Of a stretch of 42,344 nucleotides of DNA, positions 38,916 through 42,344 are shown piece by piece (position 1 is the stretch's first letter; the number at the start of each line of letters is the position of its first letter). The stretch is from Patescibacteria group bacterium (GTDB taxonomy: Bacteria; Patescibacteriota; Microgenomatia; UBA8517), in NCBI GenBank assembly GCA_035291405.1, contig DATDSD010000048.1, positions 1-42,344 of the forward strand. Reading direction: 5' to 3'. A model generated the notes under the pieces. That model made no database searches and was not told the origin of the DNA. It saw only the letters and a list, made by a program, of their open reading frames with translations. A program made the translations under genes and the position numbers.

Positions 38916-39857
38916 TTATAATATTTTTCCAGATTTTAATATCAACATAATCAACATAATCATGCCCAAAAAGGCAACATGGGCAAATGTCCTTCCCGCG
39001 ATTCTAACAATCCTTCTTCTTGAAACCAAAAAGGCATCAAGAGCAAAAACTACAAGCAAAAGACCAACAACAGCAATTGAAGCTGTACGTGTAGTGTTAA
39101 ATGGCGAAATCAATATTTCTTGGTTAGGTTGAGGACTTGTTATTGTTGCTTGAACCTTAGGGTTTTGTGTCACGACAGGGATAGCTGTTGGTGCCTGAGT
39201 AGGTTCTAGTGTAGGTATAACTGTTTGTAATGCTAATGGAGCAGGTTGTTGAGTTTCTTTCGTGGCTGTTTGAGCCACTGGAGCATTTACTTTATCAGCA
39301 TATGTAGACCCAAAAAATTGAACTATAATTGTTGTGTCTATTCCGGCCAAATCACCCTCAGTAACTCCAATCCCAACTTCTTTGTATTTGGGGTTTAAAA
39401 TATTATCTCTATGTGTTGGTGAATTCATCCAAGCGTCAACCGCAGAGGATGCACTGCTAAAATCTCTTGCTAAGTTTTCTCCTGCATACCTATATTTATA
39501 GCCAAAATCACTAAAAAATTTCCAGGGTTGTGTTCCATCTGGTGCCACGTGAGCCCAATAATCCCTATCTATCATGTCTCTTCCCTTGGTATATGCAGCA
39601 GAAGCTAACGTCTGATTGTAAGTAAGTGGGGTAAGTCCAGCTTCAGCTCTTTTTTGATTTGTTAATCTTACTACCTCTTCAGGTGAAATCTGGGCAGCAT
39701 AGCCTAAAATATTAGGTTTTAAATTTGGCAAAAGACTAATTAAACTCTGAAAAACCACAAACAATGAAGCAATAACAATTAAGCTTGATGAATGTAAAAT
39801 CTTAGCCTTGTGATTATTACTTTCTCTTGGAATAAAAAGATGAATTAACTTCCCCAT
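38916..39857 (-). CDS. CAP/SCP (YkwD-like) domain protein with N- and C-terminal membrane anchors
   Basis: 313 aa. N-terminal TM, then a CAP domain (NQKRAEAGL...DYWAHVAPDG...YAGENLA...AVDAWMNSPTHRDNILNPKYKEVGIGV). A Pro/Thr/Gln linker follows, then a C-terminal hydrophobic region. Confidence 0.75.
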   Translation of the reverse strand: MGKLIHLFIPRESNNHKAKILHSSSLIVIASLFVVFQSLISLLPNLKPNILGYAAQISPEEVVRLTNQKRAEAGLTPLTYNQTLASAAYTKGRDMIDRDYWAHVAPDGTQPWKFFSDFGYKYRYAGENLARDFSSASSAVDAWMNSPTHRDNILNPKYKEVGIGVTEGDLAGIDTTIIVQFFGSTYADKVNAPVAQTATKETQQPAPLALQTVIPTLEPTQAPTAIPVVTQNPKVQATITSPQPNQEILISPFNTTRTASIAVVGLLLVVFALDAFLVSRRRIVRIAGRTFAHVAFLGMIMLIMLILKSGKIL

Positions 39858-39878: not shown

Positions 39879-42344
39879 TTACTTGTTTTTATACTTTTTG
39901 AAGAGAATATTAAGGATTATGGCTAATAATATTAGCCCTCCCCCAATTAAGACAAATTTATTATTTGGGATGGTATGTGCAATTTTTTCAATTAATGATG
40001 GGTTTTCATTAATATTCCCAGATTCACTGGTTTCTACCTTCTCATCACCTAAAACCTGTCCAGTAGCCTCTTTAGGAAGCTGTCTGACGCTACCTGATCC
40101 ATTTTGAGGCTGGGTTTGGGTAACAGTAGTAGTCGTAGTGGTTGTGCTTCCATCACCCACTAAACTTGATGAATTTCCCGCTTTGTCTATTGCTCTAATA
40201 GAGTAATAGTAGGTTTTATCTGGAGATGCATCGTTTCCATAGGTCATGTCTGAATTTGGAGAACCTGAAACCTTAGCAATTTCATGACTGCTGTCAGCCG
40301 AGAAATCAACCGTCTCACCACGATATATGATTACACTGTCAAAATCAGCGTCTGATGGATTCCTCCAATGTAATTTATTTTCGCTTCCTAAAACATCTCT
40401 ATAATAGCCTGAAACAGGGGATGGTCCAGAATTATCAAAAATTACACTGGTCTCATCACTTACTCCTCCATCAAGAGTAACCTTAAAATAAAATTTAGCT
40501 TCTTCTGTCACCTGAAGAGATGTAACTTGAACCTGACAAGGATTTGAGGTTATATCAATCAAACTCCCGAAATCTTGATACGATCCACCCTCTTTTTTGT
40601 AAGAGAATTGAACATTGCTACCACCTAAGGCTGAGCATGATAATTTGAAGTCGTTTGTATTAACATAACTTGGTAAGCCTTGTATTGAAACAGTTGGAGT
40701 AATAGCCATGGCTTGTTTTGCAAAAACCATCAGACCTAATAAGGCTACCAGAAAACTTAATAATTTTGATTTATTTTTACCATTTTTGTTTTTCTTCAAA
40801 TAAAGACCAGTTGTTAATCCTAGTAATGCAAGAGCTAGTAACCATGTCGGATTTCCAGTAGCCGGAAGCTCAATTGAGGCACCTAATACTTGACCATTAA
40901 GGTTCCCTCCATAGCTCAAGCCTAAACCTACATTAACTGTTGAATCAGCAATGTTACATTCAGTTGTTTCAACAATCTGATCAATTTGGATAGCTGCAAA
41001 TAATAATGTATCAAACCCACCATTAAATCTACCAATTTCTGCATTACAAGTGGCTAAGTTTTTGTACGAACCATTAATAACTGAGTCTGAAATCTTTGCA
41101 TTGTACGTAATAACCTTAATTCCATCTTTTTCCACTGAACCAATATTCCACTCAAGAGTGTTCCCTGAAATTGTCGGGTCAGAAATTGAAACACCATCAA
41201 GCATAGATGTACCAGCAATATAACTAAATCCTCCAGGAAGTGCATCTATTACTTTGACGTTTTCAAGATTCATGTTCCCTGAATTTGTTAAAGTTAATGT
41301 ATAAGTTACTATGTCCCCTCTTTGAGCATTGTTTTTGTTATTTGACTTAGTAATCTCAACGTTAGGATCTTTCAAAAAGTTTCCAAAATTATATCCATCA
41401 AAATTATCATCAGGCAAAACCACCCTGTGACAAGATCCTGGATATGTTTGTTCCCATCTAGGTTTATTTACTTCACAAACTTCATAGGTTCCCGGTAGTA
41501 AATTTTCAAACCAATATTCACCAAAGTGTTCTTCTCCACCATCTGTTTGCATTGAGTCAATTAGTTGACGAATATCCTGACCATCACCTTCAGTAATTTT
41601 ATAAAGCTCTATTGTCCATCCAGAAAGTTTCTCTTCACATCCAAATTCAACATCAATCAATCCTCTTGTAAAGAAACTGCTGGGGCATCTTTGTCCATCC
41701 TGATTTATATCATTCCATTTATAACCATGAATTGAACCTAGTTGCGCGTTACCAAATCTCAATAGGCTGTTTTGTTGGCCGGAAGTTGAAATTTCTGTTT
41801 GCCAACAAACAGGAGCTTCGTCTGTATTTCCGGAACCGTTGACAACGGCAACACCATACTCCGGATGTGTGATTCCTGTATCCGTAACCGGAACATCACT
41901 AACCTTGGGCCATGTTTGGCTATAGTTGGTTTGTTGTACCTCGCAAATATAATATGTACCAGGATAAAGATCGGCGAATTTATACTGACCAAGAACACCT
42001 GTATTTGAAGTGGTCACCTCTTTAGGTGTTTGCCAATCACTGCTATAGAGCCTAATATCCCAACCATCAAGATAACTTTCGTTCAATTCGTGAGCCATCC
42101 CGTCACCATCTACATCATCATATTTTTTGCCAATGACGCTACCCAGTTCAAAATTGCCAAACTGAAGACCAATGAGATCTTCCCCAGCACCCAGGGTAAC
42201 ATCAAAACAGTTTGACCCGTCTTTGTTGGGGTTAAGCTCTGTATTTACACTTCCAACTAAGCCTGATTGAATCCAGCCATCTTTGAGAGTTTCGCAAACC
42301 AGATATCTTCCAGGTTTGAGGTCTTTAAATTTATATTGACCTAA
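39879..42344 (-). CDS. large surface protein (SdrD-B-like repeats, DUF11, internal LPATG sorting signal, FN3-like domain, C-terminal TM); 5' end beyond the right window edge
   Basis: The track starts at M 42098, but hand translation shows the frame open to 42344 (LGQYKFKDLKPGRYLVCE...GSVIGKKYDDVDGDG-MAHE). The repeated motif GQYKF(K/A)DL.PG.Y..CE / GEYWFENLLPGTYEVCE and GSIHGYKWNDINQDGQ indicate SdrD-B/Cna-B-like domains. ITKSNNKNNAQRGDIVTYTLTLTNSGNMNLENVKVIDALPGGFSY is DUF11-like. The FN3-like region is LHWRNPSDADFDSVIIYRG...YYYSIRAIDKAGN. Confidence 0.8.
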   Translation of the reverse strand, partial: LGQYKFKDLKPGRYLVCETLKDGWIQSGLVGSVNTELNPNKDGSNCFDVTLGAGEDLIGLQFGNFELGSVIGKKYDDVDGDGMAHELNESYLDGWDIRLYSSDWQTPKEVTTSNTGVLGQYKFADLYPGTYYICEVQQTNYSQTWPKVSDVPVTDTGITHPEYGVAVVNGSGNTDEAPVCWQTEISTSGQQNSLLRFGNAQLGSIHGYKWNDINQDGQRCPSSFFTRGLIDVEFGCEEKLSGWTIELYKITEGDGQDIRQLIDSMQTDGGEEHFGEYWFENLLPGTYEVCEVNKPRWEQTYPGSCHRVVLPDDNFDGYNFGNFLKDPNVEITKSNNKNNAQRGDIVTYTLTLTNSGNMNLENVKVIDALPGGFSYIAGTSMLDGVSISDPTISGNTLEWNIGSVEKDGIKVITYNAKISDSVINGSYKNLATCNAEIGRFNGGFDTLLFAAIQIDQIVETTECNIADSTVNVGLGLSYGGNLNGQVLGASIELPATGNPTWLLALALLGLTTGLYLKKNKNGKNKSKLLSFLVALLGLMVFAKQAMAITPTVSIQGLPSYVNTNDFKLSCSALGGSNVQFSYKKEGGSYQDFGSLIDITSNPCQVQVTSLQVTEEAKFYFKVTLDGGVSDETSVIFDNSGPSPVSGYYRDVLGSENKLHWRNPSDADFDSVIIYRGETVDFSADSSHEIAKVSGSPNSDMTYGNDASPDKTYYYSIRAIDKAGNSSSLVGDGSTTTTTTTVTQTQPQNGSGSVRQLPKEATGQVLGDEKVETSESGNINENPSLIEKIAHTIPNNKFVLIGGGLILLAIILNILFKKYKNK
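40704..40763 (-). other. internal signal-peptide-like segment with an AxA site
   Basis: LLSFLVALLGLMVFAKQAMA followed by ITPTV. It comes immediately after the basic tail of the sorting signal. Confidence 0.5.
40854..40868 (-). other. LPATG sortase recognition motif (internal)
   Basis: CTT CCG GCT ACT GGA on the minus strand, followed by the hydrophobic NPTWLLALALLGLTTGLYL and the basic KKNKNGKNKSK. Confidence 0.7.

Follow-up and report, generated by a model that had tools for sequence, protein, structure and literature searches.

The open reading frame (ORF) described here lies at one end of contig C48 of G000, a draft, metagenome-assembled genome from an uncultured, ultra-small member of the Patescibacteria, with 704,555 bases in 66 contigs (85% complete, ~31% G+C, no Ns). 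The window that we analysed is the entire contig, 42,344 nucleotides (nt) in length; related genomes are designated below by other G numbers, and contigs or loci by L numbers. On the minus strand, positions 39879 to 42344 form one frame of 821 codons without a stop, the 5' end of which runs off the contig edge. The translation contains the C-terminal part of an adhesin, a junction, and a membrane-anchored FN3 module. The junction reads through, without a stop, in the order ...GASIE-LPATG-NPTWLLALALLGLTTGLYL-KKNKNGKNKSK-LLSFLVALLGLMVFAKQAMA-ITPTV..., exactly as it had been quoted in a preliminary description of this DNA. Homologues of the protein come from sources named Microgenomates, Woesebacteria, and Patescibacteria.

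More than 490 residues of the adhesin precede the LPATG motif on this contig, and the start of the gene lies off the contig. Two regions of this part matched known domains: residues 75-151 (41892-42122, minus strand) form an SdrD B-like/SpaA prealbumin-like fold domain (PF17210, E = 8.5e-14; PF17802, E = 1.1e-10), and residues 329-435 (41040-41360, minus strand) form a DUF11/isopeptide-type fimbrial D2-like domain (PF01345, E = 1.1e-14; TIGR01451; TIGR04226). The orthologous adhesin of G001, a genome of the same genus, is 1,849 residues long and begins with an N-terminal signal peptide (...MKKFLSVLASVSLLINSLFAPLTAIA, with QEV following the cleavage site). When the first 1,000 residues of this orthologue were used to search G000 for the remainder of the gene, nothing beyond a weak repeat match within the window was obtained.

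The LPATG sortase motif (40854-40868, minus strand) is followed by a first hydrophobic helix of 19 residues (NPTWLLALALLGLTTGLYL, 40797-40853), the likely stop-transfer part of the sorting signal, and by the basic, probably cytoplasmic loop KKNKNGKNKSK (11 residues, net charge +6; 40764-40796). The preliminary description had interpreted motif, helix, and basic tail as a sortase sorting signal, and the NCBIfam model TIGR01167 (LPXTG_anchor) supports this, with a score of 19.7 bits that passes the cut-off of 15.9. Like the canonical C-terminal signals that this model describes, the G000 signal combines LPATG with a hydrophobic helix (19 residues) and a tail rich in Lys, in a genome that encodes sortases. 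Unlike them it is internal: the frame continues for 324 residues beyond the motif, and these include another export signal and another anchored protein. In orthologues encoded by two separate genes (below) the motif is C-terminal. Judged by its sequence, the G000 signal would qualify as an LPXTG signal in everything except the defining C-terminal position.

The machinery that such a signal would use is encoded in the genome. Absence of any sortase had been named beforehand as evidence that would speak against processing; this objection fails, as there are two sortases (C23:9019-9411 and C22:187-528), each with a PF04203 match above the cut-off. The genome also encodes signal peptidase I and five penicillin-binding proteins, and a cell wall is expected because of the latter.

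Directly behind the basic loop is a second hydrophobic segment (LLSFLVALLGLMVFAKQAMA; 40704-40763, minus strand), with signal-peptide h- and c-regions that read LLSFLVALLGLMVFA-KQAMA. It matches the N-terminal signal peptides of stand-alone orthologues of the downstream protein column by column (for example MQNKFKHSLWLLVFGLWLATRPVLA, cleaved before ITPTVSIQDLPSY), and this alignment predicts a signal peptidase I site between AMA and ITPTV, the latter beginning at 40703. The earlier proposal that this segment resembles a signal peptide with an AxA site is therefore well founded. The loop KKNKNGKNKSK would be the tail of the sorting signal and the n-region of the following signal peptide at once.

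An AlphaFold2 model of the second module (274 residues) had a mean predicted local distance difference test (pLDDT) score of 82. As had been suggested from the translation alone, which was read as an FN3-like module, a poly-Thr linker, and a final membrane helix, the model contains two tandem FN3-type beta-sandwich domains (40149-40703, minus strand; pLDDT >90 for module residues 1-185), a disordered Thr/Gln/Glu-rich stalk (39960-40139, minus strand; pLDDT <50 for model residues 189-248), and a C-terminal membrane helix (model residues 249-272) with the basic tail KKYKNK (39882-39959, minus strand). The top Foldseek matches in the PDB were tandem FN3 pairs, namely NEO1 FN5-FN6 and contactin FN1-FN3 (E = 2.5e-7 and weaker, probability 1.00). 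Sequence profiles were less informative: the second module had no Pfam match above threshold (the Ig-like families PF25788, E = 0.019, and PF24489, E = 0.085, were sub-threshold), and an NCBIfam scan of residues 548-821 gave no match. The FN3 beta-sandwich fold is thus assigned by predicted structure and not by a curated sequence profile. The module is intact and, across its mature part, 79% identical to its nearest stand-alone homologue; the nearest protein in a collection of 5.8 billion sequences was 76% identical.

We compared the relatives by a six-frame search of related genomes for both halves of the protein. In the closest of them (G001, G104, G076, G075, G088, and, at 71-76% identity, the contigs L038 and L040) the halves are split into two genes. 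The split adhesins end with LPATG, the helix, and K(R/K)KYAK(N) before the stop codon. The second gene begins with an ATG 8-14 nt ahead of the stop codon of the first, in a different frame, and an ordinary signal peptide follows. The modules, the sorting signal, the signal peptide, and the next gene downstream, which encodes a CAP-domain protein, are common to these cassettes and G000. They differ in that the split genes overlap by 8-14 nt in separate frames, while G000 is one base shorter and has a single frame.

This difference can be placed within a few nucleotides. The 14-nt gene overlap of split relatives is ATGnnAAAAAnTAA, and the alignment of the window (AAAAATGGTAAAAATAAATC) with the relatives (AAATATGCAAAAAATTAAAA) shows G000 to be exactly one base shorter at 40773-40778. 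The site on the minus strand (40771-40778) consists of a run of five A (40778-40774), a T (40773), and a latent TAA (40773-40771). Insertion of one A into the run, or of one T at 40773, ends the first gene at ...LYLKKNKNGKK or ...KN and starts the second with MVKNKSKLLSF... or MVKIKSKLLSF..., which can be compared to MQKIKIF in L040. The restored overlap is 14 nt, equal to that in L040, G104, and G088. The residual ATG of the downstream gene (40783-40781) is now in the +1 frame, where it opens only MVKINQNY before a stop.

The preliminary description had stated that no ATG, GTG, or TTG lies between the two parts. This was incorrect. In addition to the out-of-frame ATG there is an in-frame TTG, the final codon of the first helix (40799-40797), which is a possible internal start; initiation there would give M-KKNKNGKNKSK-LLSF...AMA, a complete signal peptide. 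No Shine-Dalgarno motif was found upstream of this TTG. In the window as a whole, GGAG, GAGG, or AGGA occurs within 20 nt upstream of the start codon in only 5 of 34 genes, and translation initiation in this organism appears to be largely independent of Shine-Dalgarno motifs. Because the motif is so rare, the test is uninformative for the TTG.

G000 is not the only genome with a continuous frame. The question of whether orthologues are one gene or two has the answer that both occur: the nearest relatives are split, and 10 of the 26 genomes with the locus at the order level have one continuous frame. In a class-level sample of 401 genomes we counted 26 fused and ~40 split genomes, and in 2 the genes are parted by one in-frame TAA; direct reading confirmed 21 of the fused loci at class level. 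Fused forms also occur in genomes that consist of one contig (G020, G064, G065, and G333).

In a tree of the FN3 module, G000 is nested among four split loci (support 99/98), and the best tree requires four changes of state. A single ancestral fusion was considered and rejected, as the approximately unbiased (AU) test excludes all fused forms as one clade (p = 2.5e-45). For the nine fused forms other than G000, one origin was rejected marginally by the same test (p = 0.03).

We tabulated 31 fused junctions, G000 and 30 other loci. A sorting motif is found in all 31 (22 are LPxTG-like, five of these being LPAAG, and nine are GAATG). The first helix has 19-30 residues; the loop is basic, with 4-23 residues and a net charge of +2 to +11; and a second hydrophobic segment is again universal (31 of 31). 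In 30 of the 31, (A/V/I/T/L)-x-A lies ahead of a conserved mature N-terminus. The loop of G000 (11 residues, +6) falls inside these ranges, and G000 has every element found in the other 30 loci, including the mature N-terminus xxVxIxxLPxY. Seven of the 31 loops (G055, G065, G064, G160, G158, G333, and G332) contain no in-frame ATG, GTG, or TTG, so that in these seven genomes the FN3 module can arise only from the long protein. Among G020, G064, and G065, which belong to one genus, the loop and the h-region have diverged while the motif and the A-x-A site are unchanged, which argues that both cleavage sites remain under selection.

The nine GAATG loci (L041-L048 and L050, in G395, G160, G152, G158, G212, G187, G448, G333, and G450) belong to eight other families, and in each (Q)VLGAATG(S/A)(P/E)T stands before the first helix in place of LPxTG. 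GAATG may be a variant of the sortase motif; otherwise the motif has been lost.

A second route to fusion is visible in some families. In L053 and L058 (G345 and G404) both genes are in frame and parted by a single TAA, and in the fused loci L055, L057, L054, L056, L059, and L060 the ATG of the second gene is kept just after a tail of 4-6 residues (KKMAKF..., KMKKNL...). Because this ATG still stands directly behind the short tail, these fusions arose by loss of the stop codon and not by a frameshift. Many of the other fused lineages differ from G000 in this respect: there an in-frame stop was lost (KKMAKF... is one such loop), and the loop sequences have diverged since. G000, on the other hand, lies within a split clade, and the sequence directly shows the origin of its fusion as a one-base loss from the stop/start overlap.

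On balance we favor the interpretation that a genuine in-frame fusion, of very recent date, joined two genes whose translation is ordinarily coupled, and that the precursor is processed to two products; we consider this somewhat probable. The first gene would encode a giant secreted adhesin ending in an LPATG sorting signal, and the second a protein with a signal peptide, two FN3 domains, a stalk, and a C-terminal membrane anchor. Loss of one base of the stop/start overlap would have placed both in one frame. The precursor would be exported via Sec until transfer was stopped by the helix of the sorting signal, whose N side would face outward and whose C side inward. The basic tail would remain in the cytoplasm and also act as n-region for the signal peptide behind it, and the former signal peptide would then re-insert as the second leg of a hairpin, restarting export of the FN3 module, which the last helix would anchor in the membrane. 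Sortase would cut between the Thr and Gly of LPATG and move the adhesin to a wall precursor, and signal peptidase I would cut after AMA, ahead of the Ile. The products would be the same two that are made from split genes, plus a membrane hairpin remnant of ~50 residues. Such a fusion may be tolerated because the membrane topology fits. A C-in tail joins an N-in signal peptide at no topological cost, which could explain why switching between split and fused forms is frequent.

The preliminary description had proposed a single precursor for sortase and signal peptidase. As an architecture this is supported: fusions are recurrent, the signals are kept, and 7 of 31 junctions lack an internal start. 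Because many relatives carry this fusion, the protein probably yields two products, cleaved at the membrane. For G000 itself, the description had missed that the locus is one base from the split layout and contains an in-frame TTG, so that corrected reads with a stop and a start, its own ground for refutation, are a real possibility.

In G000 the processed-fusion interpretation rests on one base, and several observations weigh against it. A single base in a homopolymer-type run separates G000 from an ordinary two-gene layout, and the contig ends 1.5 kb away from the junction. The assembly lacks the adhesin's N-terminus and with it the signal peptide, which were seen only in the G001 orthologue. 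No independent assembly of the same population was found by a protein-guided scan of metagenome contigs, and an exact-pattern scan of metagenome contigs that allowed a 13-nt or a 14-nt junction gave no match in collections from which near-identical records may be missing. With the former ATG and TAA both intact, the fusion is very recent or else not real; an intact leftover start and latent stop are the pattern of an assembly or consensus indel as well as of a very young mutation. It could thus be argued that the organism has a 14-nt overlap and two ordinary genes, and that one base was dropped from the consensus in the run of five A and a T. One added base brings back the stop, the start, and the overlap length of the relatives; the latent ATG and TAA have not decayed; all four of the nearest orthologues in the tree are split; and the genome is a metagenome-derived draft in 66 contigs that is 85% complete. 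However, coding density is 92.5%, 18 ORFs exceed 800 residues, and no gene in the 42-kb window is broken. The coding density and the intact long ORFs speak against pervasive homopolymer errors in the assembly, a reading that we rejected. Indel errors are therefore rare here, and such an error would have had to strike ~14 particular bases. Moreover, real fusions of the same junction arose repeatedly in relatives, which gives a genuine event a much higher prior. We therefore regard an assembly error as unlikely.

Two further possibilities accept the deletion as real. It might be harmful or transient, a minority or new allele in which the hairpin is misprocessed and the adhesin stays tethered to the membrane or the FN3 protein is lost, with decay or reversion ahead. 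Intact latent signals would fit an event too recent for selection to have acted, and the nearest clade is otherwise split. On the other hand, the length and charge of the G000 loop are inside the range of long-established fused forms, and neither module shows other damage, which makes a harmful deletion quite unlikely in our view. Alternatively, the FN3 protein could still be made mainly alone, from the TTG at 40799-40797, with the read-through polyprotein as a tolerated by-product. The signal peptide that would result is complete, the missing Shine-Dalgarno motif is no objection in a window where 5 of 34 genes use one, and many fused relatives retain an in-frame ATG in the loop. Against this, the seven fused relatives without a start in the loop keep the second module and the A-x-A site, TTG is a weak start and here lies within an actively translated gene, and, with ribosomes no longer terminating nearby, the split layout's coupling by termination and reinitiation is gone. 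For these reasons we think it very unlikely that internal initiation is the main source of the FN3 protein.

A more speculative outcome of a processed fusion is that sortase hands the adhesin to the new N-terminal amine of the FN3 protein exposed by signal peptidase, instead of to a wall precursor, so that the hairpin is excised and its flanks are rejoined. We consider this highly improbable. If it were true, the giant adhesin would be covalently mounted on a membrane-anchored FN3 stalk, and the constant adjacency, translational coupling, and frequent fusion of the two genes would be explained.

The nearest published parallel to the G000 layout is the N-terminal LPXTG region of the streptococcal IgA1 protease (ZmpA) and of ZmpB, ZmpC, and ZmpD, in which LPXTG is followed by two membrane-spanning segments (PMC3518915). 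The second of these has been proposed to be a second signal peptide that is cut by signal peptidase (PMC3518915, citing Bender and Weiser 2006). The same hairpin logic applies to G000, where helix 1, the 11-residue basic loop, and helix 2 lead to a predicted cleavage site between AMA and Ile. The differences are substantial. In the Zmp proteases the motif is near the N-terminus behind a short leader, whereas here it comes after a giant adhesin (>490 residues; ~1,850 in G001). Downstream, G000 encodes not a protease but a small FN3 protein that carries a C-terminal anchor of its own, and no metalloprotease domain was found by Pfam or NCBIfam in the fused protein. In addition, the G000 layout comes from fusion of two genes that are still separate in relatives. 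The G000 protein is therefore not a member of the IgA1 protease/Zmp family. No publication on internal LPXTG signals was found for the candidate phyla radiation (CPR) or for Microgenomates; a new CPR pilus (PMC13278184) is a chaperone-type system and does not involve sortase.

Sortase sorting signals are regarded, and annotated, as features of the C-terminus. In G000 and in dozens of related Patescibacteria, one lies complete within the protein, and a second export signal follows it. If these proteins are processed as proposed, they would be natural bacterial two-product precursors, with two housekeeping enzymes of the membrane making the cuts. The contribution of this window is an apparent origin of such a fusion: one base lost from a 14-nt stop/start overlap, which would leave the topology undisturbed. 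Predictors and gene callers that demand a C-terminal signal will miss such proteins, and single-base indels at overlaps of this kind warrant a check at the level of reads before anything is built on them.

Downstream of the fused frame is the conserved gene for the CAP-domain membrane protein (38916-39857, minus strand; PF00188, E = 1.1e-21), which has hydrophobic segments at both ends. The same gene is found behind the cassette in L038, L039, and G001, and the gene order there is the same as in G000. The genes behind the cassette in L038 match those of G000 further, encoding a CAP-domain protein, a GalU-type transferase, and a 630-residue dehydratase. The CAP-domain protein may be part of the same surface module as the cassette.

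Other sorting-signal-like sequences were observed elsewhere in G000. At L003 (contig C22, 178-1363, minus strand) a 180-residue sortase is encoded directly behind a 220-residue secreted Thr/Pro-rich protein. The latter ends with GGQVLGTSTMAGTG, a hydrophobic segment, and KNGKKKN; its motif is the variant MAGTG, and the preceding stretch, QVLG(A/T)ST, is common to it and the adhesin. Contigs C32 (plus strand) and C50 (minus strand) carry ORFs that end, immediately before their stop codons, with ...IPETGANFPTILGAGFGIIMILISLALAL and ...LPDAGTSWPTILGTAFGILIILGSLLLAF, respectively; both resemble sorting signals but have no basic tail.

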